From UHGV virus genome UHGV-0203461: DNA of 50,795 nucleotides. One strand, 5' to 3'. The DNA comes from a virus. Made by a program: the position numbers and the translations under genes. Below, piece by piece: positions 3,629 through 30,046 of this stretch. The notes beneath the pieces are model-generated. The model had not been told where the DNA came from, did no database searches, and saw only the letters and a program-made list of their open reading frames with translations. Numbering within the stretch: position 1 is the first letter of the stretch; each line of letters begins with the position of its first letter.

Positions 3629-3910
3629 TTATTTTTTTCCTAGTTTCTGCATACTTTCTATAAATACTTTTATTTGTTTCTCTGTCTTTTCTTCTTTTTT
3701 ATGTATAGTTGTAAATACTTGTGTAAAAAAATTATCATATTTACTTACATCTTTTTCTTCTTTTATTACATCTAAATATTCTTTTTTAGTTACTAATACT
3801 TCATAGTTTAATTGAAAACCAACTCTCTTCTTTTTTAATATTCTCATTTTTACTAATCTTCCAAGTAAAATCTCTGTAGTGCTTTTTCTCCACTTATACT
3901 TTTCTTTCAT
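3629..3910 (-). CDS. second BlaI-like paralog, N-terminally truncated or degenerate
   Basis: 93 aa. It is homologous to the C-terminal two-thirds of the neighbouring BlaI-like protein (YKWRKSTTEILLGRLVKMRILKKKRVGFQLNYEVLVTKKEYL against YKWKQTTTLTLLLRLTKRGFL...YTILIKEKEYL). The upstream in-frame extension has no start codon. Confidence 0.4.
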   Translation of the reverse strand: MKEKYKWRKSTTEILLGRLVKMRILKKKRVGFQLNYEVLVTKKEYLDVIKEEKDVSKYDNFFTQVFTTIHKKEEKTEKQIKVFIESMQKLGKK

Positions 3911-4439
3911 TGCTACTTCTATTTCTTTTTTAGATAGAGTAGACTTTTCCCTTCACATGTACTCCATCAACATTAATTCGCCCCTGCGTAATTTACTTTC
4001 TACCTCTTGTCGCTCCATTTATGTCACTTCCTTAATTCGTCTAACTTAAATTAATAATAGGAGCTTTTTAGAACAAAAACTATAGGTAATTTTTACCAAA
4101 TATTCTACTGTTTTAGTTTGTTTTCTTAGAAGAAAAATAACTTTCATATCTATAAAATTATTCAACTTTCAAACTATCCTGTTGAATAATAACTAATTCT
4201 ATTGTATTATTTTAGTTGTAGAATAAAACTAAATCGGCAAAACTAGAGAAATTTAGTGGCATAAATATATATGAACTAAGAATTGTAAAATGAGTTATAA
4301 GTTATATCATCCAGTTATCAAAAACATATACTCTTTTTGTTTTTGTGAAAGTTTTTTAGGTGGCTAATAATATATATACTTAGAGATAAAATAAAATATA
4401 TTTCTAATATTCATAGTTTTATTTTTTCTCAAAATGCGA

Positions 4440-4595
4440 TATAATAAAGATGTAAATTCGTATCAAAAACAAAAAAAGAAACTACAATCTATTAGCCTAG
4501 AGTGAAGTTTCATTAACTAAATATTAATGTCGTTTTTTATTAAACTTGATTTTTACATCAAGCTCAAAGTCACTCCTGCCAGAGTGGCTTTTTAC
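4440..4595 (+). ncRNA. putative antisense antitoxin sRNA of type I TA locus 1 (boundaries approximate)
   Basis: TATAAT -10 box at 4440-4445. The transcript would run antisense into the 3' half of the toxin ORF and stop at the hairpin CACTCCTGCCAGAGTG plus T-run at 4572-4595. The architecture is mirrored at locus 2. Confidence 0.35.
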
Positions 4596-4667
4596 TTTTC
4601 TGGAAATAATATATGTAATAAAGCTAGCTGTTAAACTAGCTAACACTCCTAGTAAAAATTCGCTCAT
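4524..4667 (-). CDS. type I toxin, small membrane peptide, 47 aa (MSEFLLGVLASLTASFITYIISRKVKSHSGRSDFELDVKIKFNKKRH)
   Basis: Absent from the ORF track because it is under 60 aa. RBS GGAAGGAGGTGG. Hydrophobic N-terminal helix with a charged C-tail. Upstream promoter TTGATA-N15-TGTTATAAT at 4758-4784 on the - strand. Paralogous to the peptide at 21445-21606. Confidence 0.6.
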   Translation of the reverse strand: MSEFLLGVLASLTASFITYIISRKVKSHSGRSDFELDVKIKFNKKRH

Positions 4668-4926
4668 TTCTCCACCTCCTTCCTTTTAAGGGATGGAATG
4701 TAGAAAATGAAGCTCCACTCTTAGATTGTAGTTCCACAAGATTATTCTTGCATTTTAATTATAACATAATTTTACAATTATCAAATATCTATTCTTCATA
4801 TTTTTTATTTATACAATATATTCTATATTGCAATAAAAAACATTGTTTTAAATATATATATACATAGGTATATACTAAATATGTTAAACTTAATTATAGA
4901 AAATATAAAATGAAAGGAATAAAAAT

Positions 4927-5115
4927 ATGACTAAGACTATATTATGTGATTACTGTAATAAAGGAATAAACAAAGATGATAATAAGTATATTACTTTTCA
5001 TAAGAAAAGTCATATGAAAACTAACATTTGTATTAATTGTGCATTAAATTTGATAGATAAAGATAAATTAAATGAAAATATTATAAATAATCAACATGGT
5101 TATTCAAAGAAATGA
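4927..5115 (+). CDS. small zinc-ribbon protein (CxxC...CxxC)
   Basis: 62 aa with two Cys pairs. Followed by a hairpin plus T-run near 5310-5340. Confidence 0.3.
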   Translation: MTKTILCDYCNKGINKDDNKYITFHKKSHMKTNICINCALNLIDKDKLNENIINNQHGYSKK

Positions 5116-5709
5116 AAAAGCACTCTCCATAATGAAGAATGCTCTATATAATAATGTTTGACTTAGTAAAGATGTGTTGGGGTTACATATTTACTTTTTT
5201 ATTATATCATATAACTTTGTGTATGAAAAAGAATTTAAATCGATTTTAAGGTGTGTTGAGTAATATTCTTGATAGTTTATATGTTGATGAATTTCAAAAA
5301 AATAAGCACTCTTATAAAAAGAGTACTTTTGGTATATATTCAAGCATTTATCTAATACAATTATAGCATGTCTTATGTTTTAGTCTGATAATTTTCGTTC
5401 GTTTTATTATTACAGCTATAGACATAAAAACAAAAAGTATAAAAACTATTGCTATAGCTTTTATACTTTAAAATTCATAAAATTTTACTACTTAATTTGT
5501 TCTAACAAATACTTATAGTCACTATAAGAAATATACTTATTTGAGAAAGCTTGTTCTTCTAAATATTCTTTTTTTTGTTTTCTTTCTTTAAAAAATACAA
5601 TTATTTTTTTTATCATAAAACACACCCCCTAATTTTGTAGCTATAAATACAATTTAAAATATATTTTTATATAATTATGAACTTAATAGATTAAAATTAT
5701 ACTCAAATA

Positions 5710-6741
5710 TTAAAAAATAGTACATATATAAGTTGCCACAATTCCACAAATAACATTAATTAAAATCGTTAATGATAAGCTACTTTTTATTCCTTTTTCA
5801 TGTTTTTTGTTTTTGATATCTAACTTCTCTCGTTTTATTTTATCTCCATTCGTTATGTTGAATATGTGAGTGTCACCATACTCATAAATTTCTGTCAAAA
5901 ACTTATTTGATAAAAATTCTCCAATATTTTTTATTACTTTATAAATAAGACTAAAAAGCAATGTAAGCATGATTAATTTTTGTATATGACTTATGCTTAA
6001 CTGAACTAAAGTATCTATATTAAAATGCGACAAATTAAAATTAACTATACTTACCAAAACAATTAAGCCAAAAAGTGGTATGATATTTTCTATAACAGCA
6101 GAAATACCTTTTCTATATTTTCTAATAAATTTCATTGTTTTTCCTGATTCAGAAACTACTTTTTGTATTGATTTATCCCATTCTTCTATTATATTTATTA
6201 ATTCATCACCTAATAGATGATTAGTAAAATCAACTTTGCAAGTAACAGGAGATAAGCTTTTATCTATAGAATCTATTTCTTCTATTTGACCACTTACTAT
6301 GAGCTGTAATATCTGTTGAGGCTTCATTCCTGAAGATAGTCTTATTACTAATGTATGTCTCTGAGGAACCCCATATTCTTTAAAATCAACAAAAAAATCA
6401 TACTTTATAGTTATATTTTCTAAATAGTGGGAGCTAGACCAATTACAATTTTGAAATTCTATCCAATCAGAAAACTCTTTGAAAGTATTGTTATCAAACT
6501 TAACTGATATATTCACTATTAAAGCTGCTACTATATAATGTTGTAATTTTTCCTTTATTTTTTCATGTAAAGAATATAAATCTTTTATTTCTACATTTAC
6601 ATCTCTTGGAAAAATTCTAAGCATACTATCAGGTTTCCCGTTCATTAAATTGAATAGAGCCTTTAATTCTTCATGACTTATTCTTGATACATCAAGATTT
6701 TTTTCATCAATCTCACCATAAACTAATTCTTTATTCATCAT
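5710..6741 (-). CDS. membrane protein with a soluble N-terminal domain and 3-4 C-terminal TM helices; candidate abortive-infection or superinfection-exclusion factor in the conversion region
   Basis: 343 aa. The C-terminal third has strongly hydrophobic segments (IIPLFGLIVLVSIVNF, LIMLTLLFSLIY, LTILINVICGIVATYICTIF). No recognisable catalytic motif. Sits between the endolysin and the integrase. Confidence 0.45.
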   Translation of the reverse strand: MMNKELVYGEIDEKNLDVSRISHEELKALFNLMNGKPDSMLRIFPRDVNVEIKDLYSLHEKIKEKLQHYIVAALIVNISVKFDNNTFKEFSDWIEFQNCNWSSSHYLENITIKYDFFVDFKEYGVPQRHTLVIRLSSGMKPQQILQLIVSGQIEEIDSIDKSLSPVTCKVDFTNHLLGDELINIIEEWDKSIQKVVSESGKTMKFIRKYRKGISAVIENIIPLFGLIVLVSIVNFNLSHFNIDTLVQLSISHIQKLIMLTLLFSLIYKVIKNIGEFLSNKFLTEIYEYGDTHIFNITNGDKIKREKLDIKNKKHEKGIKSSLSLTILINVICGIVATYICTIF

Positions 6742-15824: not shown

Positions 15825-16506
15825 GCCTCAACACCTGCCCTTTATAGATGGTATATTTAGGTACTTTTTTACCCTTGTTAGCTTTATCCATCATTGTTTT
15901 ATTTAACTCATATACTTTCTTGTATAACGAACCATTACCAAGTTGCTTCTGACAAATTGACCAAAGGCTATCCCCTGCTTTTACTGTATATGTTTTAGTG
16001 TTTGTGGCATTGACTGAATCAACTCGTTTTGGCTCTATCTTTACATTAGGTCTACCAGTCTCATTTTTAGGAGGGGCAAGAACTAACTTTTTAGTTGAGT
16101 AATCTCTATATTGCTTTAACTTTATTGCAACTTTTGTATCTGAACCATTTTCTGCATCTTCTGAAATAGCATACTCTTCAAGAGATACTTTTATATTAGT
16201 GTTAAATAGTACTTTATTACCTAATTCCCTCGATACAATAAATTGAAATGGCTTACAATCAGTTTTTAATAGTTCCAGTTTACTTAAAAAGAATTGAACA
16301 TCTTTAAAAGCTCCACGATAAAAAGGTAGCTTATTGTGTGTAAATTCTGCTTCAAAACTTATTTCAGATAGCCCTTCTTTTTTTAATATGTTTACTTCTC
16401 CAGTATTTATCAAATCAACTGTCTTGTTTTTATTTGTAACTTTAATCTCTAACTTTGGCGGAGGTATTGGTAATTGTACTCCATCTAAATAAAAGTCATA
16501 AGCCAT
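15817..16506 (-). CDS. LysM-domain tail protein (XkdP-like)
   Basis: 229 aa. C-terminal LysM motif (YTVKAGDSLWSICQKQLGN...YTIYKGQVLRL). Confidence 0.65.
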   Translation of the reverse strand: MAYDFYLDGVQLPIPPPKLEIKVTNKNKTVDLINTGEVNILKKEGLSEISFEAEFTHNKLPFYRGAFKDVQFFLSKLELLKTDCKPFQFIVSRELGNKVLFNTNIKVSLEEYAISEDAENGSDTKVAIKLKQYRDYSTKKLVLAPPKNETGRPNVKIEPKRVDSVNATNTKTYTVKAGDSLWSICQKQLGNGSLYKKVYELNKTMMDKANKGKKVPKYTIYKGQVLRLV

Positions 16507-16521
16507 TTATATCCCTCCTCT

Positions 16522-18864
16522 CTAAACTATTCCCTCAGCAGATACAACCATGGCATCATTCAGTTTCTCAGTTAAGACATTTACTATGCCGTCGACATCT
16601 GCCTCACTATTTATGTTGTTTGTATTGTTCATATCAATTTTAATGTTGACTCCTGTAAATCGATTTATTACCTCCTGCTCTGCAATATCTCTAAGATATT
16701 TTAAATCTTCTTGACTTTTATCCATTGTTTTAGCCATTTTTGCAGTATTTCCTGCGGTGTCTTTTGCTCCTTTGGCTGCATCATTGAGAGGAGAATTTAA
16801 TCCTGCTGAGCCTATTCCTTCACCAAGTCCGTATTTTTTATCCCAAAGGTCATCTAATCCTAATTTTTTCTTTGCATCTTCTGCTATTTTACTGATATCA
16901 AAAGTATCTTTCAATTTGTTTTGTAATTGATGTCCTACGTCATATCCTTTTATAAATTCTGACTTTAAATTTTTGTACTCTACTAATTCTGGTTTCCATG
17001 CTTTAGGCTCAGGCGGTTTTTGAATGGGTTTAAATGTTGTTTTTGTACCAATTACAGTATTTACTTTTTGAAATTCTTTCATTTGTGGTAAATCAATTCC
17101 TGGAATTTTATTAATCTGTTGTACTAACCAATTCAATCCTTTTACAGCTATATTAACAGCTTTTATAATACCATTTGCTAGATTGGTAGCAAATTTATCA
17201 AAAGCTTTGTCTAAATTAACACCTGCCTTGAGTCCTGCGTTAGCCATATCAATAAAAAAACATTGTACTGCATATAAACCAGTTCTAAAAGCATTTGCTA
17301 TTCCAACTACACAAATATTTATCGCATTTACTATCCCTGAAATTACGTTATAAACGACTGCACATAACCAATACCAAGCTCCAACTGCAAGACTTATTAC
17401 ACTTATGCTTGTTCCTGCAAAATGATTATACACAGCTACCAATATAAATACAGCAGATATTACTGCAATTATACCTAAAACTACCCACGTTAGTGGACAT
17501 GCATATAATGCCGCATTTAAACCATATTGTGCTATAATTTGTCTCCATGTTGCTCCTGTGGCTAGGTCATGCATAATGGCTGTTTGAGCTAGTTGAAAAT
17601 CAAACCATTTTTGAGATAATAATGCAATGGAATTTGCAATTGCTAGTCCTAGTACTGCTGTTTTGTATAATGTTAATGCTCCTACAATCCCCAAAATTAC
17701 AGGAGATATTATACTCCAATTTTGTGCAAATATATTAGCAAGGTTTAATGCTTGTGTTATTATCCAGCCTAGTGCTTGTGAAATTAAACTTATCCCAACA
17801 ATCATTGTGTTTGAAAAACTTTGAAAAGCTGGGCTCCCTAATATACTTATAATTCCATTAAAAATGTTATAAGCAACATTTCCAAGTACATACAAAGAGT
17901 TTATAAAATTATCTATAAAGGTTCGAAATCCCTTACTAGACATAGACTGTTCAATTTTTTTCTGTATAACACCAAATATCATGATTGCATTATTTTTAAT
18001 TGAAGTCCAAATTTGAGAAAATGTGTAAGGCATTTTTTCAAACTCTGCATTGGTCTGCTCTGCTGCTGCAAGTAATGAGTTTTTTACAATATCTGCTGTT
18101 AACATTCCCTCTGATGCCATTCCTCTTATTTTTCCTATGTCCACGTCCAAATAATCTGCAATCGATTGGATGATGTTAGGTGCTGACTCAAACACAGCAT
18201 TCAGTTCCTCACCTCTTAATACGCCAGAACTCAACCCTTGGGTTAGCTGTAACAATGCCGAGTTCATTTCCTCAGTACTTGCGCCTGCTATTACAAATTT
18301 TTTGTTTAATTGCTCTGCAAAACCTACAATTTCTTTTGTACTGCTAAACGCCTTTCCTGCGTTCATGCCTATACGACTCACTATTTGTGCAGTATCTAAG
18401 TAAGATGCTCTTGACCTTTCAGCTGATTGAAATATCATTTTATTAAGTCCAGCATCTGATTGTTGCCCATCATTTATCATGCCAAGTCTCGCATTAGTAC
18501 TTGTCATCTGGTCGCTTAAATTTCCTAGACCTCCTAATGTTCTTATACCTAAATAAGTTGCTGCTAGCTTCTTTGCACTTCCAACTAATCTATCTGTAGA
18601 ACTTGCACCCTTATTTATATCCTCATTAAGTTTTCGCTGTTGATTATCTGATTCTCTTATTTGTCGTTCTAATCTATCAAATCCAGCTTCTGCTCTTGCT
18701 AGTTCTTCTCTAGCTGTTCTAATACTATTAGCATCTATAGCATTACTAGATGTTCTTTGTAATTGCTCGAATGAACTCAGTACTATATTCATAGCATTAG
18801 TCATATGCCGAAATGCAGGTGTCATTCCGTCGAAAATTCGGATAGATGTCTGTATCGTTGCCAT
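16522..18864 (-). CDS. tail tape measure protein
   Basis: 780 aa. Coiled-coil N-terminus, central hydrophobic TM-like block, Gly-rich C-terminus. Position after the tail chaperones. Confidence 0.85.
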
Positions 18865-18896
18865 TTTTTCACTCTCCTTCCTTATTTTAATACAAT

Positions 18897-18928
18897 AAAA
18901 GCACTCACTAATTTTTAGTAAGTGCTTT
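18897..18928. terminator. hairpin AAAGCACTCACT-loop-AGTAAGTGCTTT, first member of a recurring terminator family
   Basis: Near-perfect 12-bp stem flanked by A/T runs. Lies between the SHOCT gene and the tape measure gene. Confidence 0.45.
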
Positions 18929-18933
18929 CTGTA

Positions 18934-19704
18934 TTATAAATTTAGTAATTCTTTCTTCTTAGTATTAAATTCTTCATCTGTTATTGCTCCTAAGTCTAAC
19001 AATTCTTTTAATCCCTTTACTTGTTGTATTGCATCATTAGAATTATTTTGTATATTAACAGCTTCATTATCCTTTACAATTATTGCTAAAACAGATAATA
19101 TTTCTTGTGCAGAAGAATATGCCATTTTGTAAATTGAAGAATTACTTTTAGTTCTTAATTGTATCAGATTTACATAAACATTAGGATTACTTAAATTATT
19201 TAATGTTATTTTTATCTTAAGACTATCTATGAAAGCTTTTGTTGTTCTTTTAGCTGTTACTCCTCCAACAACAGCACCTACTCCTCCAAATAAAGCTCCC
19301 CCTGCTAAAGCTCTTCCTATCCCTCCTTTAGTCACAGTTTCGCCATTTTCTAGAAGTTCATATTCTATAACATCACTGTAATTATAAACATTTAAATTCA
19401 CTTTTTCTCTATTAAACCCATTTAAAACAATAAATTTCTTATTATTATCATCAAATTCCATAAATTTTAATATTTTTTTTGTAGGATTAAAATTTTTAAG
19501 CTCTTTTTCTTTATCATCTTTTGATTCAATAGCCTTCTCGACCTCTAATTTAGTTGGTAACCCACGATATAAAGTATTTCCTGGAGTAAAGGTGGCAACT
19601 GCATATTTCTTAAAACACTCTTTACACAACCATCCATCAGCTATTTTTTGTTTTCCTTTTTCTCCACAAATACAACAATTATCTTTACTTCCAAACAATC
19701 CCAT
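18934..19704 (-). CDS. zinc-ribbon (DUF4428-like) / glycine-zipper / SHOCT-domain protein; moron
   Basis: 256 aa. N-terminal CCICG...CKEC, a central GRALAGGALFGGVGAVVGGVTA glycine zipper, and a C-terminal SHOCT motif (LKELLDLGAITDEEFNTKKKELL). Confidence 0.5.
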   Translation of the reverse strand: MGLFGSKDNCCICGEKGKQKIADGWLCKECFKKYAVATFTPGNTLYRGLPTKLEVEKAIESKDDKEKELKNFNPTKKILKFMEFDDNNKKFIVLNGFNREKVNLNVYNYSDVIEYELLENGETVTKGGIGRALAGGALFGGVGAVVGGVTAKRTTKAFIDSLKIKITLNNLSNPNVYVNLIQLRTKSNSSIYKMAYSSAQEILSVLAIIVKDNEAVNIQNNSNDAIQQVKGLKELLDLGAITDEEFNTKKKELLNL

Positions 19705-19783
19705 AATATTACCCCCTACGCAATTTTATAAGATTATTATACTATATAAGTAAAATTTTTACATTATAATCACATCCTTTCAA

Positions 19784-19819
19784 TAAAAAAACACCTACTT
19801 TTTAAGTAAGTGTTTTTCA
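19784..19819. terminator. hairpin AAACACCTACTT-TTTTA-AAGTAAGTGTTT
   Basis: Same motif family as the hairpins at 18897, 21229 and 28486. Lies between the antirepressor and the SHOCT gene. Confidence 0.4.
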
Positions 19820-19982
19820 TTTATATAATTAATTTCTTATTTATACTTTGATTGTTTACAATATATATCTACTATTTGTTTGAAAACATAAAAGTTCTCT
19901 TTATCTTCTTGTATATTTTTTAGGCGAGAAATAAAACGTTCTTTTTCCTCACTACATACATCATTTAATAAGTTATTTTACA

Positions 19983-20804
19983 TTACATTGCCTGCTTATA
20001 TACAACATGATAATTTTTCTTCTCACCTTGTATCTTAGCAGGTCTATTATTTTCCTCTATCCAATTTCTTATTTTATCTATTACACTTTGTGAATACTTT
20101 GTTGTAGTACCATTCCAATTATCCTTATTTGCTAAAACTATAAGTTTTTCTTCTTCTTTAATATCTAATTTCTTAATAATCTCACAAACTGCCACAAAAG
20201 CAGGTTTATTAGTTTTAGAGTAAATATTTAACTTGGTTGCAATTTGTTTTGTATCAAAGAAATGTTCTTTTTCTTCAATCTCCAAAGGCAACTCTATTCC
20301 TGCCTTTTTATAGATAGTCTTTGCTGTAAGTAACTTTGCTTTTTCATCTATTCCAGCACCATTTAGAAATGGAGTCAAAATTTCTATTGTTTTATTAACT
20401 GTATCTAGACTTTCTATTTCATTTGCCTTGTCTCGTAGTACTTGAGGGTTAGCATTGTTAGTTATGTATGCACCAGTTTGTCGAATAGCTGGTAAAACTT
20501 CTTTTGTAACCCAATTCTTAAAATTTTTAGCTGTCTCTAACTTGCTTCCAAATATCAGAGAATAAAGTCCACTCTCATTTATTAATGCAGTTTGAGTTTT
20601 GACCATGTTCCCATTTTGGGAATGTGCTATCATTTCAAATATTTTATCATCATCATCAACATGACTTGAAACAGCTTTACTAGGGTTAGCATAACCTAAT
20701 GTCTCTGCTACATCCTTACCAACAAACCAAATTTCATTATCTATATCTATAGTTCTTATCTCTCCAAAATCTTCATTTTTAAATATTTGTAAGTTATTCA
20801 TCAT
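19983..20804 (-). CDS. phage antirepressor (Bro-N N-terminal domain, KilAC C-terminal domain)
   Basis: 273 aa. N-terminus NNLQIFKNEDFGEIRTIDIDNEIWFVGKDVAETLGY (Bro-N), KilAC-like C-terminus. Confidence 0.75.
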   Translation of the reverse strand: MMNNLQIFKNEDFGEIRTIDIDNEIWFVGKDVAETLGYANPSKAVSSHVDDDDKIFEMIAHSQNGNMVKTQTALINESGLYSLIFGSKLETAKNFKNWVTKEVLPAIRQTGAYITNNANPQVLRDKANEIESLDTVNKTIEILTPFLNGAGIDEKAKLLTAKTIYKKAGIELPLEIEEKEHFFDTKQIATKLNIYSKTNKPAFVAVCEIIKKLDIKEEEKLIVLANKDNWNGTTTKYSQSVIDKIRNWIEENNRPAKIQGEKKNYHVVYKQAM

Positions 20805-20890
20805 ACATACTCCTCCTAAATTTAATTTGAAAGAAGTTTCTCTATATGATAAAATATTTCATATAGAAGATTACTTCTTTGTTGGAAATA

Positions 20891-20928
20891 GAGCATTCAA
20901 ACTTTGGTCGGGGAGAATGCTCTATTTT
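20891..20928. terminator. 11-bp perfect inverted repeat ATAGAGCATTC-N16-GAATGCTCTAT followed by TTTTTGTTATTTTT on the + strand
   Basis: Perfect dyad between the RHH gene and the antirepressor. May be an attenuator/terminator or a protein-binding site. Confidence 0.35.
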
Positions 20929-20930
20929 TG

Positions 20931-21101
20931 TTATTTTTCTAAAAGTAAATGGATTCCCTGTCTTATAGCCTCTGCTTTTGTAAGGTTATTTTTTTTACAG
21001 TATTCATCTAATTTTTCATTAGTTTCATCATCTACTCTAACCTTAATATCATTAGTTTTAGGGCTTCCTACAACAGGTCTTCCTATTTTTTTAGGACTCA
21101 T
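20931..21101 (-). CDS. CopG/Arc-type ribbon-helix-helix protein, 56 aa (MSPKKIGRPVVGSPKTNDIKVRVDDETNEKLDEYCKKNNLTKAEAIRQGIHLLLEK)
   Basis: Absent from the ORF track because it is under 60 aa. RBS GAGGTG 6 nt upstream. Classic RHH beta-strand/helix pattern. Immediately upstream of the antirepressor. Confidence 0.55.
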   Translation of the reverse strand: MSPKKIGRPVVGSPKTNDIKVRVDDETNEKLDEYCKKNNLTKAEAIRQGIHLLLEK

Positions 21102-21112
21102 GTTATCACCTC

Positions 21113-21162
21113 ACTTTTGAGTTCCATAATTAAATTATATAGTTTTGGAACTCAAAAGTCAA
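21113..21162 (-). promoter_or_regulatory. consensus sigma-A promoter TTGACT-N17-TATAAT (- strand) overlapped by a 14-bp perfect inverted repeat ACTTTTGAGTTCCA-N19-TGGAACTCAAAAGT
   Basis: On the + strand, AGTCAA at 21157-21162 and ATTATA at 21134-21139 are spaced 17 bp apart. The palindrome arms are at 21113-21126 and 21146-21159, covering the -35 box and the transcription start. Confidence 0.5.
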
Positions 21163-21228
21163 TAACTTATTCCAATTTTTTCTAATTATTTTACTCAACC
21201 GACCATTTTGAGCAAATTTGAGCAAAAC

Positions 21229-21257
21229 AAAAGCACTTACATGTTGGTAAGTGCTTT
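21229..21257. terminator. hairpin AAAGCACTTAC-ATGTTG-GTAAGTGCTTT (11-bp perfect stem)
   Basis: Same motif family. Preceded by the direct repeat TTGAGCAAA x2. Confidence 0.45.
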
Positions 21258-21373
21258 CTTATTTACAATTAAATTTATTCATCTAGTTAGATTCATCATT
21301 ATTTTGTATAAAAAATTTCATCTTTTTATTGACTATAAAAAATATTATAGGCAATATTTTTTCTAATTTGTGG

Positions 21374-21525
21374 TATAATAAAAACAAGAAGAACTACAAT
21401 CTATTTAGCGGTAGAGTGAAGTTCATAATTTTAAAAAATATAAATTATTTAAATTTGCGGAACTTTATTTTAAAACCAAGTTCCCAGCCACTTTTACTCT
21501 TGCCACGAGTAGAGTGGCTTTTTAC
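21374..21525 (+). ncRNA. putative antisense antitoxin sRNA of type I TA locus 2 (boundaries approximate)
   Basis: Extended -10 box TGgTATAAT at 21371-21379. Conserved leader AACTACAATCTATTTAGCGGTAGAGTGAAGTT. Terminator hairpin plus T-run at 21487-21529 inside the toxin ORF. Confidence 0.35.
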
Positions 21526-21606
21526 GTTTTTGATACATCTACAAACGATATATCCAATTAAACTAGCTATCAAGCTAGCTAATATACTAAGTAAAAAATT
21601 GTCCAT
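21445..21606 (-). CDS. type I toxin, small membrane peptide, 53 aa (MDNFLLSILASLIASLIGYIVCRCIKNVKSHSTRGKSKSGWELGFKIKFRKFK)
   Basis: Absent from the ORF track. RBS GGAGGTGG. Paralog of the 47-aa peptide at 4524-4667 (shared xEFLL..LASL.AS.I.YI..R.VKSHS pattern). Extended -10 box TGTTATAAT on the - strand at 21696-21704. Confidence 0.6.
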   Translation of the reverse strand: MDNFLLSILASLIASLIGYIVCRCIKNVKSHSTRGKSKSGWELGFKIKFRKFK

Positions 21607-21926
21607 ACTTCCCACCTCCTTTCATTAGGAAGTAGGTTTTATCCCAGTATGAACTCCACTCTATAAATTGTAGATTACATCTTCTTGCTACAATTATTAT
21701 AACATATAATTCTTACATATTTTACCTATATTTTATCTTCTTCTACTTCTTCTAGCTTCTTTAGCAGTCTTTTTTTCTTCTTTTATTTCTTCTTCTACTT
21801 TAATATCTATAGAAGCAGCAACAAATGCCCTCTCGAAGTCTGGTAAATCTGTATATTCATGTGGTTTCCATTTGAATTTATGAAGGCAATAATGAGCTAC
21901 ACTAGCATCATAATCGCCTCCTTCAA

Positions 21927-22367
21927 TTAGTTTTTTGCTTCTTCTACTTTATCCTCAAAAGTCCTATCAAAACCATTCACCTCTCCTACCTCACTTGAAA
22001 GGTCTGTATATTCACCAGGAGTTAACATTGTTGTTAATAGCTCCTCTGCCCCCATTACACCATAACTATTTTGAAGTTCTGCATCATGTAAATCTGGAAA
22101 TACTACAGTTTCTACACACAGTTTCAAAGTATAAGTATTAAAATCTGTTTCACTAGTGTATTGCCCTGTTGCTTTCCCTTTTTTATTTAGTACAGGTACT
22201 CTTATAGTTGAATCTTTTCTTAATTGTCTATCTCTATCTGAATCTATTGCTTTAAGTTCCCATTCGATTGCTTTTCCATCTTCTCCTATAAACCTTTCAC
22301 TTGCCACATACTTTCTATTCTCTACTTTTATTGCATTTTGACTTAAAAAAGCGTTTAAATCTCCCAT
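21927..22367 (-). CDS. tail assembly chaperone, downstream member of an XkdN-like pair
   Basis: 146 aa, between the tube and tape measure genes. Confidence 0.4.
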   Translation of the reverse strand: MGDLNAFLSQNAIKVENRKYVASERFIGEDGKAIEWELKAIDSDRDRQLRKDSTIRVPVLNKKGKATGQYTSETDFNTYTLKLCVETVVFPDLHDAELQNSYGVMGAEELLTTMLTPGEYTDLSSEVGEVNGFDRTFEDKVEEAKN

Positions 22368-22371
22368 ATTC

Positions 22372-22629
22372 TTATTCTACCTCCATCACCAAATATTTTG
22401 TTTGTTTTTCTATTGTTGCAACACCAGCTTCATTTATTTCAAATTTTATGATTATTGGCTTTAATGACGAACCATCAATTGTATCTGTTGCTAACTTATC
22501 TGAAATATCTATAAGATATTTTCCTGCCTTTTTATACATCTCGCTGACACGTTCTTCCAAAGGTCTTTTATTGCTATAATCAAAAGAAATTGAATCTTTT
22601 ATCTCATATTTATCCTTAATTTTAATCAT
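22372..22629 (-). CDS. tail assembly chaperone, upstream member of an XkdN-like pair
   Basis: 85 aa, immediately after the tube gene. Confidence 0.4.
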   Translation of the reverse strand: MIKIKDKYEIKDSISFDYSNKRPLEERVSEMYKKAGKYLIDISDKLATDTIDGSSLKPIIIKFEINEAGVATIEKQTKYLVMEVE

Positions 22630-22681
22630 CTCCTATTCTTATAAATAAAAAATACACATACATAAATCATAAATGTGTATT

Positions 22682-23152
22682 TTACTCCATACCATTTGCT
22701 ATATTAAATTTCTCAACTAATTTCCAATTCTCAAAAGTAAAATCCATATCTTCATCTAAATACTCCCCATCAGCATCAAATTTAGCAATTATGCCTGAGT
22801 CCATATTGCAATCTTCCAGTATTATAGTTTGACGACCCACTGAACTTGTTGGGTCTTCATTGGTAATTTGTATATCGAAGTAAATATCCTCACCAGTTTC
22901 TTTATACTCATACAACAATTCTCTAAATATAGAGGTATTATAATAAAATGTTGCATTTCCTGAATATTTACTTCCTGTTGATTTATTTCCTTTTGTAGTA
23001 CTACCTAATATAGGTATCTCACTCTTATTCTTTTCCATTTTAGCTTCTAAGTTAATAGCTTGCATAAAATTATATCTTTTACCTTTTATAGTTACAAAAC
23101 ACTCTGCCTTAGATGCACTTATTGTATCTCTTGCTTTTATTTGTTGTGCCAT
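22682..23152 (-). CDS. tail tube protein (XkdM-like)
   Basis: 156 aa, directly downstream of the sheath gene. Confidence 0.7.
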   Translation of the reverse strand: MAQQIKARDTISASKAECFVTIKGKRYNFMQAINLEAKMEKNKSEIPILGSTTKGNKSTGSKYSGNATFYYNTSIFRELLYEYKETGEDIYFDIQITNEDPTSSVGRQTIILEDCNMDSGIIAKFDADGEYLDEDMDFTFENWKLVEKFNIANGME

Positions 23153-23173
23153 TATTATTCTCCTTTCTTATTG

Positions 23174-24484
23174 TTAACTAACTGAAACAGTCATATAAAG
23201 CTTACTCATAGCACTAATAACTTTTACAGCATCACTTACTACAACAGTCTTCTTGTCGCTTCCAGGTTCTACAGAAACATCATCAGCTTTGAAATCTTCT
23301 ATTGCTCTCATATTTTGCAGTTGTTCATGATGCTTAACTACATCATTCCAAAACGAGATACGACCAGATTTATCATTTGGTACTTCACCCAAGTACTTTG
23401 TATTAAATAAAGTCGCTATATCATTAGCAATCTGGTCAAGTACTCTAACAGATTGATTGCTTGAAAAATCATCATTTTTATCATCTGTAAATGATACAAA
23501 AGTATTTATATCCTCTAACACATGAAATTCATCTCCCACCTTGTGGAATATAAATTTACCAGTTTTTAAAGCTTCTTCAAGTTGTATTTGTGTATAATTA
23601 ACATCTACATCAAACTCACCATCATACTTTTTATTAGTATTAGATTTATTTATATCACATCCAGCTATAGCTCCAGTCGCCCAATAAATTAAACTAGATT
23701 CTACTAATCCAATATCTTTAATCTTATTCTCAATAGATACTACACCCTCGTAATCTGCATCATTCTTTTTATATAAAACAGTTTGAAACTTAGCTCCTAC
23801 CTTATCTCTCATTCTCTTTGTAAATTCTACAAACAAACTTTTAATTTCTGTTGTTGTAGCCAAACATCCTAAAGCATTAAAGCTATAGCTTTCTATTTTA
23901 TCCAAGAAAGCTTGGTACTCTGCTCCTGTCACAGCTTCGCCATTAGTTCCACCAGTAAATACAAGTCCTGCACTTGCTTCTAGTGTTGCATCCTTCTTCC
24001 AAGTGATATAGTCATTGTCTTGTAAGTCTGTAATAACCTTTGCTATTTGAGTATCTACCTTCTTATTATCTAAAAGTGTTACAACATCAAACTTAGCATT
24101 ATCATCTATATTTGTTGTAACTGTTACTTTTAAGTCATTTCCTCTGATACCACTATATTTTGCTGTGGCTATAGTACAACTGGCTTTAACGCCTTTATTT
24201 AATTTATAAAAATATCCCAACCTTATATTTTTGAATAAATCTCTCAAACCTTTCAGCTTCTCATGAGTATAATCATATCCAAAATACTTCACTGAATACT
24301 TCTCAAAATCATCACTGGTTACTTGAAATACGTCTTCATCTATGCCCCAATCTAACTCTAAAGGTATTGCAACAATACCTCTATCCGATAATGAACTGGT
24401 TGCCCTTGTAGCACTTACAAAATTTATATATGCACCAGGTAGGACCTTATTTTGTGTTACAAATGTTCCTCCACCTAAAGCCAT
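23174..24484 (-). CDS. contractile tail sheath protein
   Basis: 436 aa. N-terminal MALGGGTFVTQNKVLPGAYINF sheath signature. Confidence 0.85.
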   Translation of the reverse strand: MALGGGTFVTQNKVLPGAYINFVSATRATSSLSDRGIVAIPLELDWGIDEDVFQVTSDDFEKYSVKYFGYDYTHEKLKGLRDLFKNIRLGYFYKLNKGVKASCTIATAKYSGIRGNDLKVTVTTNIDDNAKFDVVTLLDNKKVDTQIAKVITDLQDNDYITWKKDATLEASAGLVFTGGTNGEAVTGAEYQAFLDKIESYSFNALGCLATTTEIKSLFVEFTKRMRDKVGAKFQTVLYKKNDADYEGVVSIENKIKDIGLVESSLIYWATGAIAGCDINKSNTNKKYDGEFDVDVNYTQIQLEEALKTGKFIFHKVGDEFHVLEDINTFVSFTDDKNDDFSSNQSVRVLDQIANDIATLFNTKYLGEVPNDKSGRISFWNDVVKHHEQLQNMRAIEDFKADDVSVEPGSDKKTVVVSDAVKVISAMSKLYMTVSVS

Positions 24485-24670
24485 CTAACTCACTCCTTTC
24501 ATAAATTTATTTATTCTATCCTCTACCTCTGAGAAGGAATATAAATCATTTTCTTTTAAAATTGCATTTAATAAATCTTTTCTATTTACATACTTCTTAG
24601 AGTTAACTATCTGCTCCTTAGTAAACTTGTAGTTATCTTCTTTGCTTAATGTTTTACTCAAAATTATCAC
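24485..24670 (-). CDS. hypothetical small protein
   Basis: 61 aa, tightly packed in the late operon. Confidence 0.3.
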   Translation of the reverse strand: MIILSKTLSKEDNYKFTKEQIVNSKKYVNRKDLLNAILKENDLYSFSEVEDRINKFMKGVS

Positions 24671-27637: not shown

Positions 27638-28231
27638 TTATTTTATACTCCATGCGTCAGCATATGGATTTTTAGAACCTTCCTCATTCTTTTCTTTAGC
27701 AATATTTTCAGCTCTACTTAATGTATTTTTATTGCCATTATCGGGGCTGTAATTTATCTTAGTCTCTCCTGTTTTTATTAAGAAAGATTTTTGAGTTAAC
27801 CAAGTATCAGTCTGTTCCTTTAGTCCTGTAAAAGTACCATTTTCATATTTTATTTTTTCTAAATCAAGTTCTGCTTTTGCTGCTTTAGTGCTATGAACAT
27901 TAAGTTTAATAAGTTCATTTTCTAATGCCATATCAAACTCTTTTTGTTCTTTTTCCTTTAATTTATTTTGATATTCTTCATCTTTTGCAGTTAATTTAGT
28001 CTCATAGCCTTTTTTAAGCTCTTCAATCTGCTCTTTTGTCATTCCATCCTTAAAACCTTCAATTGCTTCTTTTGATGCTTTTAATTCTTCTTTTACCTTT
28101 TCATACTCAATTTTATTAATATAATTTTCTAATTCTTTTAATGATTCAGCTTCTACTTTCTTTGCATCTTCTTCACTAAGCCCTAATACAATTAATTCAC
28201 CTTTTTTCATTTTATTTAATTCTCCTTTCAT
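27638..28231 (-). CDS. scaffolding protein
   Basis: 197 aa. Highly charged E/K-rich coiled coil. Confidence 0.6.
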   Translation of the reverse strand: MKGELNKMKKGELIVLGLSEEDAKKVEAESLKELENYINKIEYEKVKEELKASKEAIEGFKDGMTKEQIEELKKGYETKLTAKDEEYQNKLKEKEQKEFDMALENELIKLNVHSTKAAKAELDLEKIKYENGTFTGLKEQTDTWLTQKSFLIKTGETKINYSPDNGNKNTLSRAENIAKEKNEEGSKNPYADAWSIK

Positions 28232-28485: not shown

Positions 28486-28521
28486 AAAGCACCTACTAAT
28501 TTATTATTTAGCAAGTGCTTT
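28486..28521. terminator. hairpin AAAGCAC...GTGCTTT, fourth member of the recurring family
   Basis: Same stem ends as the hairpins at 18897, 19789 and 21229. Confidence 0.35.
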
Positions 28522-28684: not shown

Positions 28685-30046
28685 CTAAACCTCCTTATAT
28701 TCTTTTATTTGTTCTAGCCAGTAATTATAACCTTCTTTTGGTTTAAATAAGGTTGATATTTTACCATCAGCTCTTCCAACAGCAAAATCATTAGTACTCT
28801 TTCTATATTTAAATAAAAAGTTATCTTTACTTAAAAATCCTTCTACATCATTACTTAATTGCTCTGATAACAAATTTCTTGCAGTAGATAAATATTCTTC
28901 AGCAGTTATATTTCCATATTCATTTAAGTGTTTTTCTACATGCTTTTTAAATTTCTTTTCAGTTGGGAAATCTGCTTTTAACCAACTCTTATTACTTAGT
29001 ATATCATCTTTTTTATCAGTTATAAATGTCTTTTCATACCATTCTTTATATTTCATACCAGATGGCAAATAATATGTTTTCCCATTGTCATCTCTTGCTG
29101 CTCTATAGCCTTCTTCATCCTCGAACCAAGGAGCTGTTGTTGTCCTACAACGACAATGAAATGGTGGAGCTGTTATTCCAACTTGATAATCTTTCATATC
29201 AAATATTTTTCCATCCAGCTCTCTACATATATTTGAAGTTCTTAAATCTAATGTAGCAATAATCTCATATTTCTCTACATCTAAATCACTAAAACAATCT
29301 TTTCTACTTGCTGATGCAAAGAAAGCTGATTCAGTCATTATCAAATTCTTAGCTTGTGATTTAGATACATTAAATCTCTTAGCAAAGTCATTTACTAAAT
29401 TTTTTGGATTTTCACCTCTAATAATTGATTGAGTTAGCTTAGTATGTAGTTCATTTACTAAAATAGGTCTATACTTACCCCAAATTCTTTCACTAAAGTT
29501 TAATCCATCTGTTGCCCATGGTTTAGAGATAATTTTATTTATTCTATTAGTATCAAGACTCATTAAACTCCAACCAACGTTTACTCCTTGTTGAACATTA
29601 AAAGCTGTATGATAATATCCACTTGTATAAATATGTCTCATTAATTTATCAATACCATCAAGTTCATTTCCATAAAGCACTTCCACTTGTTGCTGTATTT
29701 GTAACTTTAAAGCTTCAAGCCTTGTTATATGAACTCTTGCACTAGCATTTTCTAACTCTTTCATCCACTTTTGATTTATAGCATTTTCTTTACCATATTT
29801 AATATATTCTTCTACACTCCACTTAAACTCTTCTAGCTCCCTTTTATTTAATAGTTTCTTAGCTTCTAATAAAGATATTCCTTCGTTTTTAGCAAATCTG
29901 TTGTACCATGCTAATATATCTTTTTCTATACTATTCATAGCTAGTTTATATTGTTTTTCTAATTCAAGATAATATTTTATGCTCTTATTATTTTGTGCTT
30001 CTTCTAATTGTTCAAATCTCTTCTTCCAATAATCTTTATGTTTCAT
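28685..30046 (-). CDS. MuF/SPP1 gp7-family head morphogenesis protein with a ~100-aa C-terminal extension
   Basis: 453 aa. MuF core (ICRELDGKIFDMKDY...PPFHCRCRTT). Extra C-terminal domain of unknown function. Confidence 0.7.
   Translation of the reverse strand: MKHKDYWKKRFEQLEEAQNNKSIKYYLELEKQYKLAMNSIEKDILAWYNRFAKNEGISLLEAKKLLNKRELEEFKWSVEEYIKYGKENAINQKWMKELENASARVHITRLEALKLQIQQQVEVLYGNELDGIDKLMRHIYTSGYYHTAFNVQQGVNVGWSLMSLDTNRINKIISKPWATDGLNFSERIWGKYRPILVNELHTKLTQSIIRGENPKNLVNDFAKRFNVSKSQAKNLIMTESAFFASASRKDCFSDLDVEKYEIIATLDLRTSNICRELDGKIFDMKDYQVGITAPPFHCRCRTTTAPWFEDEEGYRAARDDNGKTYYLPSGMKYKEWYEKTFITDKKDDILSNKSWLKADFPTEKKFKKHVEKHLNEYGNITAEEYLSTARNLLSEQLSNDVEGFLSKDNFLFKYRKSTNDFAVGRADGKISTLFKPKEGYNYWLEQIKEYKEV

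Follow-up and report, generated by a model that had tools for sequence, protein, structure and literature searches.

Three stacked cassettes in a probable accessory-gene hotspot between the tail chaperone and tape-measure genes of phiC2/CDMH1-like Clostridioides difficile phages

Introduction

In prophages of Clostridioides difficile, clustered regularly interspaced short palindromic repeat (CRISPR) arrays have been placed in the interval from xkdN to the tape-measure gene, with ORF6N and Bro-N genes adjoining (Hargreaves 2014, PMC4173771). Toxin-antitoxin (TA) systems of type I have been described as well, their toxicity, neutralisation and role in prophage maintenance have been shown, and toxin homologues occur in all C. 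difficile phages (Maikova 2018, PMC5961336; Peltier 2020, PMC7699646). Herein we analyse UHGV virus genome UHGV-0203461, a stretch of 50,795 nucleotides (nt; hereafter the window), in which the late operon, encoded on the minus strand, is interrupted between the genes of an XkdN-like tail assembly chaperone and the tape-measure protein by an insert that carries a type I TA locus, a ribbon-helix-helix (RHH) regulator, a Bro-N protein and a protein ending in a SHOCT domain. We consider it probable that phiC2/CDMH1-like C. difficile myoviruses have a lineage-wide accessory-gene ("moron") hotspot and that this insert is its form in the window, built from three independent cassettes in a conserved slot order. 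The morons of lambdoid phages are reportedly promoter-gene-terminator units between late genes, a concept of Juhala, Hendrix and colleagues. The cassettes of the window resemble them in having their own promoters and terminators between genes that are adjacent elsewhere, and in that late transcription passes the terminators, whereas they differ in that several are stacked in a fixed slot order and share two conserved linkers and one hairpin family.

Comparison with related phages

The region 16000-24500 of the window (8.5 kb) served as megablast query. CDMH1 covers 92% of this query at 93.6% identity, while phiC2, phiMMP01/03 and phiCDKH02 match its flanks only. The homology to CDMH1 is continuous except for 20523-21173, a swapped block of ~650 bp in which the promoter lies together with the regulator and the N-terminal domain of Bro; the toxin, the SHOCT gene and the C-terminal half of Bro are shared with CDMH1 at ~93% DNA identity, whereas the window has an RHH regulator in place of the gp19 type and another N-terminal domain in Bro. 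In phiC2 the TA locus (21354 onwards, 95.5% identity) is retained, as is the hairpin that precedes the tape-measure gene, with three other genes between them, and phiMMP01/03 and phiCDKH02 carry other cargo at this junction.

For a wider view we fetched 80 chaperone-encoding viral contigs. Both borders were present in 60 of these, which together with the window and three phage-database records gave 64 stretches, in which hotspot length was taken from the stop of the chaperone frameshift open reading frame (ORF) to the tape-measure start. These comprise 41 distinct hotspot sequences of 624-7815 nt (median 2037), and in none of them is the chaperone-tape measure junction empty. The order of the slots is fixed: the toxin (26 of the 41 hotspots, always within the first 400 nt) is followed by CRISPR arrays (15), one to three regulator-Bro cassettes (18), an optional DUF4352 lipoprotein and a last gene, which is the SHOCT gene in 24 hotspots (always in this last position), a zinc-ribbon/glycine-zipper gene in 10, a membrane protein in four and a lipoprotein in two. 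In XkdN-type elements of Bacillus, Hungatella and Tissierella the gap between chaperone and tape measure is just 138-290 nt; the two genes are thus adjacent in distant elements, and the hotspot is therefore an accretion site of the C. difficile lineage.

A self-contained island, acquired recently by this prophage in particular and unusual for its position, would agree with that empty junction in distant PBSX-like elements and with the GC content of the insert, which lies slightly below that of the flanking late genes (26-31% vs 31-39%; a difference that we left out of the evidence). Given that CDMH1 has the same island, that every distinct relative is occupied in a common slot order and that the site has been described before (PMC4173771), we regard such an event as highly improbable. 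The comparison with related C. difficile myoviruses had been proposed in the original prediction as a search for an empty junction, and its outcome changes the picture that was drawn there of a self-contained moron island at an unusual position: the cassettes with their own promoters, genes and terminators stand, whereas the one-off insertion does not, and the position is not unusual. Related phages do carry homologous genes at this place, as variable cargo and not as tail components.

The junction and the flanking genes are those of the variable xkdN-tape measure region of phiC2-like phages (PMC4173771) and of CDMH1 gp18-gp21, with the difference that the window is without the CRISPR arrays of the published prophages; neither CRISPR repeats nor remnants of them were found in the window. 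The adjacency of the flanking genes in distant relatives, the promoter and terminator signals seen in scans and folds, and the start sites mapped in uninduced strain 630 for homologous TA and regulator cassettes (PMC7438776 supplement) support an array of promoter-gene-terminator cassettes and not of tail components. The insert is a new mosaic member of the published hotspot and largely ordinary for this phage family.

Layout of the insert and its terminators

The insert spans 18865-21732 (2868 nt) by its ORF borders and holds four minus-strand genes and one plus-strand RNA candidate (Table 1), in agreement with the ~2.8-kb interruption first placed at 18890-21705. The upstream border depends on the chaperone, which is 97-100% identical to those of CDMH1 and phiC2. 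The slippery heptamer A AAA AAC sits in its final codons and the -1 frame is open as far as 21733, therefore we end the chaperone unit there. The extension of 66 codons (21733-21926) was recovered by tblastn in every related locus and, by analogy with the known G/GT-type chaperone pattern and given the canonical heptamer, is taken as a probable frameshift product. The annotation of the CDMH1 and phiC2 records lacks this product.

Three minus-strand cassettes make up the insert, each closed by a hairpin of one family, as the original prediction had it. The motif AAAGCACTTAC, allowing at most one mismatch, occurs eight times in the window against 1.45 expected, and hairpins of the family have a density of 0.73 per kb within 40 distinct hotspots vs 0.022 per kb in the flanks. 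A terminator-like hairpin, mostly with a T-run, lies ~30-50 nt before the tape-measure start codon in 22 of 24 distinct sequences upstream of this gene. Since terminators stand at the cassette ends, late transcription must pass three of them (one to several in relatives) to reach the tape-measure gene, so that it would be termination-resistant or the hairpins would be leaky. A fourth GCACTTAC/GTAAGTGC hairpin lies outside the insert at 28486-28521 (-20.2 kcal/mol, z = -5.9), between the late genes 27638-28231 and 28685-30046.

Table 1 Features of the insert and of its two borders, from the upstream to the downstream border (positions in the window; predicted features are named as such).
Feature	Position	Strand	Details
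XkdN-like tail assembly chaperone	21927..22367	-	Pfam PF08890 Phage_TAC_5, E 1.2e-44; upstream hotspot border
Chaperone extension, probable -1 frameshift	21733..21936	-	slippery A AAA AAC 21936-21930; stop 21733-21735; from three-frame translations
Toxin promoter, predicted	21690..21705	-	extended -10 box TGTTATAAT 21705-21697; predicted start site A 21690; read from sequence
Type I toxin gene, 53 amino acids (aa)	21445..21606	-	hydrophobic N-terminus, lysine-rich tail; AGGAGG 8 nt upstream
Toxin mRNA, predicted, ~299 nt	21392..21690	-	minimum free energy -94 kcal/mol, z = -7.8; 3' end by analogy with the 298-nt CD0956.2 mRNA (PMC5961336)
Antitoxin RNA, predicted, ~137 nt	21371..21525	+	promoter TGgTATAAT 21371-21379; start ~21387; terminator 21502-21518 and U-run
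Bidirectional hairpin, family GCACTTAC...GTAAGTGC	21229..21258	both	closes the TA cassette; -15 and -14.3 kcal/mol, z ~-4.6
Linker B, conserved 60-nt segment	21170..21228	-	directly after the hairpin; common to the upstream regions of unrelated regulator genes in relatives
Cassette promoter, predicted	21113..21162	-	TTGACT (21162-21157), spacer of 17, TATAAT (21139-21134); 11 of 12 consensus matches
RHH (CopG/Arc-type) regulator, 56 aa	20931..21101	-	PF01402, 28.3 bits vs cut-off 20.5
Hairpin between RHH and Bro genes	20886..20927	-	13-bp stem, 16-nt loop, without U-run; -16 kcal/mol, z = -7.3
Bro-N protein, 273 aa	19983..20804	-	PF02498, E 3.5e-29, 101.7 bits vs cut-off 25.6
Decayed small ORF	19837..19983	-	ATG then immediate TAA, then 46 open codons, end ...FYVFKQIVDIYCKQSKYK
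Hairpin, same family	19786..19818	-	closes the RHH-Bro cassette; -14.7 kcal/mol, z = -5.1, then U-run
Linker A	19705..19785	-	promoter-like TAATGTAAAAATTTTACTTATATAGTATAAT 19766-19736; GGGGG ribosome-binding site; palindrome 19750-19762
DUF4428 zinc ribbon / PH with glycine-zipper loop / long helix / SHOCT protein, 256 aa	18934..19704	-	DUF4428 and SHOCT above Pfam cut-offs
Hairpin, 15 pairs	18897..18929	-	33 nt upstream of the tape-measure start codon; -21.9 kcal/mol, z = -7.5
Tape-measure protein gene	16522..18864	-	Pfam TMP_3, E 1.6e-44; downstream hotspot border

The toxin-antitoxin cassette

The first slot holds a type I TA locus, as had been proposed. Its toxin scores 78.8 bits against the NCBIfam equivalog NF047374 CD_typeI_toxin (cut-off 60, E 2.8e-22), matches PHROG 738 (E 1.4e-28) and is 100% identical to CDMH1 gp18; translation most likely starts at the ATG at 21606, which gives 53 aa and not the 56 of the longer ORF 21445-21615. 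The TGTTATAAT box and its flanks (21697-21725) are near-identical to the TGN-10 promoters of CD0956.2 and CD2299.1 that were mapped in uninduced strain 630 (PMC7438776 supplement), and the toxin start site is therefore placed at 21690. This predicts a leader of 84 nt, vs mapped leaders of 83 (CD0956.2) and 88 nt. In the model of the 299-nt mRNA the 5' and 3' ends are paired, the ribosome-binding site lies inside a hairpin and a long-range inverted repeat joins 21412-21438 and 21637-21663. The predicted antitoxin RNA (fold z = -4.5, terminator from a scan) is convergent and, at the sequence level, overlaps the 3' part of the toxin mRNA; the 134-nt RCd9 and RCd10 are of similar length and like geometry (PMC5961336). 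At gathering thresholds Rfam returned no family in the whole window, and the RCd antitoxins are evidently not in Rfam.

With CD0956.2/RCd10 and CD2907.1/RCd9 the locus thus shares the toxin family and its 53-aa size, the TGN-10 promoter, the leader of ~84 nt, the convergent antisense RNA and the sequestered ribosome-binding site, whereas it differs from them in having no adjoining CRISPR array and in its toxin sequence, which is the CDMH1/phiC2 variant. By analogy, a stable and highly folded toxin mRNA would be checked by the short convergent antisense RNA, and cells that lose the prophage would be poisoned, so that the prophage would be maintained, as was shown for homologues. The window encodes another type I toxin at 4536-4667 on the minus strand, with 55% identity to that of the insert; it is situated between the integrase (~1725-2843) and the lysis genes and presumably corresponds to the "TA locus 1" of the earlier annotation.

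The regulator-Bro cassette

The second slot opens with linker B, a segment that unites the upstream regions of four unrelated gene clusters in one group of 28 members and that also precedes a mapped start site in strain 630. Around the -10 box of the near-consensus promoter lie two perfect inverted arms of 13 nt (21147-21159 and 21113-21125), 21 nt apart; the promoter had been predicted under a "14-bp perfect palindrome", and while the consensus promoter holds, the palindrome is an interrupted repeat. The arms are a likely operator of the RHH protein; as transcription would include the right arm only, they are most naturally read as a DNA operator. Seven regulator variants follow one layout (-35 TTGAxx, left arm, -10 box, right arm, GAGGTG), in which the arm sequence varies with the regulator variant and the symmetry is kept in six of the seven, with a weak repeat only in L010; the CDMH1 gp19-type variant has paired palindromic sites around the -10 box instead of an inverted repeat. 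Such arms, changing with the regulator, are what regulator-operator pairs would look like. In CDMH1 gp19 (L001 6489-6731) and its equivalents in L003, L005, L018 and L060, the TTG annotated as start of an 80-aa product is the -35 hexamer, and the true start is probably an ATT or ATA 7-8 nt after GAGGTG, which gives ~59 aa.

A homologous promoter, with linker B and inverted repeat, has a mapped start site in uninduced strain 630, with a 329-nt leader to a "phage-related regulatory protein"; this is in support of a promoter that is active in the absence of induction and of a transcript shared by the regulator and the Bro-type gene. The regulator matches PHROG 876 "transcriptional repressor" (E 4.8e-17), in addition to its Pfam family. 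The hairpin between the two genes could be a processing or attenuation element. Downstream of Bro, the decayed small ORF is related to a 44-67-aa ORF that follows Bro in relatives (ORF clusters C2/C36).

The Bro protein combines an interchangeable N-terminal domain with a conserved C-terminal domain: the former is Bro-N in seven of nine family members and ORF6N in two, and homologues of the latter are confined to Clostridioides. By Foldseek against the PDB, the N-terminal domain of the AlphaFold model resembles the Mbp1 APSES fold; apart from this match the model retrieved nothing below E 0.06, and a PDB sequence search with Bro gave no match. The CopG/RHH and Bro-N assignments of the original prediction were thus confirmed by profile searches, whereas the KilAC domain that it gave to the Bro protein was not found: PF03374 (KilAC/ANT) had zero hits at E<=1 among the nine family members, hhalign against a genuine Bro-N+ANT protein aligned residues 3-124 alone, and precomputed Pfam annotation of 120 Bro homologues lists Bro-N or ORF6N only.

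A role of Bro as antirepressor, by which co-resident prophages would be induced or engaged in cross-talk, would accord with the full-length match of Bro to PHROG 2011, annotated "anti-repressor Ant", and with the plan of the AriS-like Listeria phage regulators, in which interchangeable N-terminal DNA-binding domains (Bro-N, AntA or pRha) likewise stand on a conserved C-terminal domain, there ANT(KilAC) (PMC9043618). However, the active domain of AriS is the ANT/KilAC domain that Bro does not have, its own C-terminal domain being of the Clostridioides-confined kind, and the gene is located among the late genes, downstream of an RHH regulator of its own, a position unlike that of known antirepressors. 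"Antirepressor" is an annotation label only, drawn from the family, and the names in the sources are inconsistent ("toxin Bro", "phage repressor", "antirepressor"). We therefore hold this role to be unlikely.

Similarly unlikely, in our estimate, is a type II TA-like or abortive-infection module with RHH as antitoxin and Bro as toxin, even though "toxin Bro" is the NCBI name of many family members, antitoxins are commonly of the RHH type (with a weak RelB_antitoxin hit at E 0.008, below the cut-off) and an autoregulated two-gene operon suits the pattern. The two genes neither overlap nor are coupled, being separated by 126 nt that include a hairpin; Bro has no PADLOC or TA family hits, Bro-N is a DNA-binding fold, and the family is, as said, inconsistently named.

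A regulator of prophage-borne CRISPR arrays, orphaned in the window by array loss, is an idea raised in PMC4173771 that we entertain tentatively. CRISPR arrays accompany Bro/ORF6N cassettes in 14 of 18 hotspots, vs one of the 23 without Bro/ORF6N; the loci are related, however, and the co-occurrence may stem from function or simply from joint inheritance in hotspots of larger size. In the window, in CDMH1 and in two other loci the cassette is present with neither an array nor a repeat remnant. A link to the AcrIB2 anti-CRISPR locus was considered and rejected, this locus being unrelated and elsewhere in the phage genome. In the hotspots L076 and L079 (in L076 at ~3800-6700), a 464-aa TnpB/Cas12f1-like protein (OrfB_IS605 and TNB domain, E 8e-26) is encoded between flanking arrays with a repeat (…GAAGAATAACATGAGATG…) other than that of type I-B.

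For the middle slot we thus propose that the 56-aa RHH protein most likely binds the inverted arms at its near-consensus sigma-A promoter and represses itself, and that this promoter would drive a Bro-N DNA-binding protein, maybe a regulator connected with the CRISPR arrays, which usually occur along with it and are missing from the window.

The last slot

The last cassette begins with linker A, whose near-invariant core TAATGTAAAAATTTTACTnATATAGTATAAT contains the palindrome GTAAAAATTTTAC. Linker A stands upstream of four unrelated gene families (44 members), is single-copy in the window and, in phiC2-like phages, is confined to the hotspot. The palindrome lies ~27 nt upstream of the expected SHOCT-type start site and is conserved across linker A in 42 related sequences, and the window has no second copy of it; we know of no factor that binds it.

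The protein (PHROG 888) holds all three domains in the order DUF4428 / PH_gly_zipper / SHOCT, the central one being a PH fold with a glycine-zipper loop, and the earlier reading as a DUF4428-like zinc-ribbon/glycine-zipper/SHOCT protein was sound. A PDB sequence search gave zinc-ribbon ribosomal proteins only, at E>0.1. Members of the family occur widely in Firmicutes. Prophages of Lysinibacillus and Sporosarcina have the homologue between a CI-type repressor (or ImmA) and the integrase, whereas the copy of the window is in the late operon; the homologue of a C. sporogenes prophage stands between chaperone and tape measure. The gene thus moves between lysogeny and chaperone-tape measure sites, and we therefore read it as cargo and not as a tail part. 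The site between repressor and integrase is a typical home of exclusion genes, and the placement of the homologues suggests, by analogy, a lysogen-expressed role in exclusion or defence. Sie2009 and Ltp are prophage superinfection-exclusion genes of lactic-acid-bacteria phages; the SHOCT gene is likewise a small prophage gene with membrane-type features and has homologues between repressor and integrase, whereas its protein has no sequence relation to Sie2009 or Ltp. In SNIPE, a membrane-localised injection-stage defence (bioRxiv 10.1101/2025.11.03.685801), DUF4428 and PH are N-terminal modules of homologues without membrane helices; the SHOCT protein differs in having no nuclease domain, and we take the resemblance as a lead only.

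The alternative last-slot protein of phiC2 (p19, L002 4326-4886; cluster C7) has an N-terminal zinc ribbon with a glycine-zipper segment between the second CxxC pair, a design that parallels the SHOCT protein without sequence similarity. We also considered, and rejected, that the last-slot gene is tied to the tape-measure allele: phiC2 and the window share the tape-measure protein's N-terminal region (94.6% identity), and their last-slot genes differ.

Several points weigh against our account of stacked, independently expressed cargo cassettes. The related loci are not independent samples; the AlphaFold model of the C-terminal half of Bro is poor (pLDDT 40-80); and PADLOC gave no meaningful defence match for the four proteins of the insert, with nothing better than E 0.005. 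The strain 630 table contains no start site with the linker-A motif, a weak negative given that no compared locus is identical to phiCD630-1, and the SHOCT gene may thus have no transcription of its own in lysogens. In minimal hotspots, moreover, it follows the chaperone without an intervening terminator, so that it is also in the late transcript.

The last two points would equally suit a conserved tail-assembly or late-function gene, as would the place of the SHOCT gene directly before the tape measure in 24 of the 41 hotspots, its presence as sole gene of the smallest of them and its same position in the C. sporogenes prophage. Against this stand the unrelated genes for a zinc-ribbon protein, a membrane protein or a lipoprotein that replace it in 17 of the 41 hotspots, the Bacillales prophage homologues beside repressor and integrase, far from the tail genes, and the terminator between the SHOCT gene and the tape-measure gene, and we judge a tail function to be improbable. 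Read as accessory cargo, the zinc-ribbon / PH-glycine-zipper / SHOCT protein behind its conserved promoter-like linker would most likely be made in the lysogen and act at the membrane in superinfection exclusion or defence.

Implications for C. difficile phages

The hairpin-plus-promoter linkers shared by unrelated genes are likely joints for the swapping of cassettes between phages. Going further, and speculatively, the hotspot might be a cassette-exchange platform in which the two linker modules serve both as expression signals and as recombination joints, with the slot before the tape measure reserved for a membrane-type protein (the PH-glycine-zipper/SHOCT protein, the zinc-ribbon/glycine-zipper protein, a membrane protein or a lipoprotein); these might form a new family of injection-stage superinfection exclusion that acts on tape-measure-mediated DNA entry.

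The site, the TA locus and the Bro genes were already known, and current understanding is unchanged. Modestly new are the two hairpin-plus-promoter linkers before unrelated genes, the operator arms that vary with the regulator and the mobility of the SHOCT gene. The slot order and the linkers help annotation, which routinely overlooks the antisense RNA, the frameshift product of the chaperone and the small toxin, and in which at least one regulator family has apparently been annotated from a false start codon. The position of the SHOCT homologues beside repressor and integrase makes a lysogen-expressed role in exclusion or defence directly testable. The hotspot is where C. difficile temperate phages keep genes for maintenance and inter-phage competition (type I TA systems, CRISPR arrays, regulators and membrane proteins), and it supplies candidate genes that may limit phage therapy or phage engineering in C. 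difficile.

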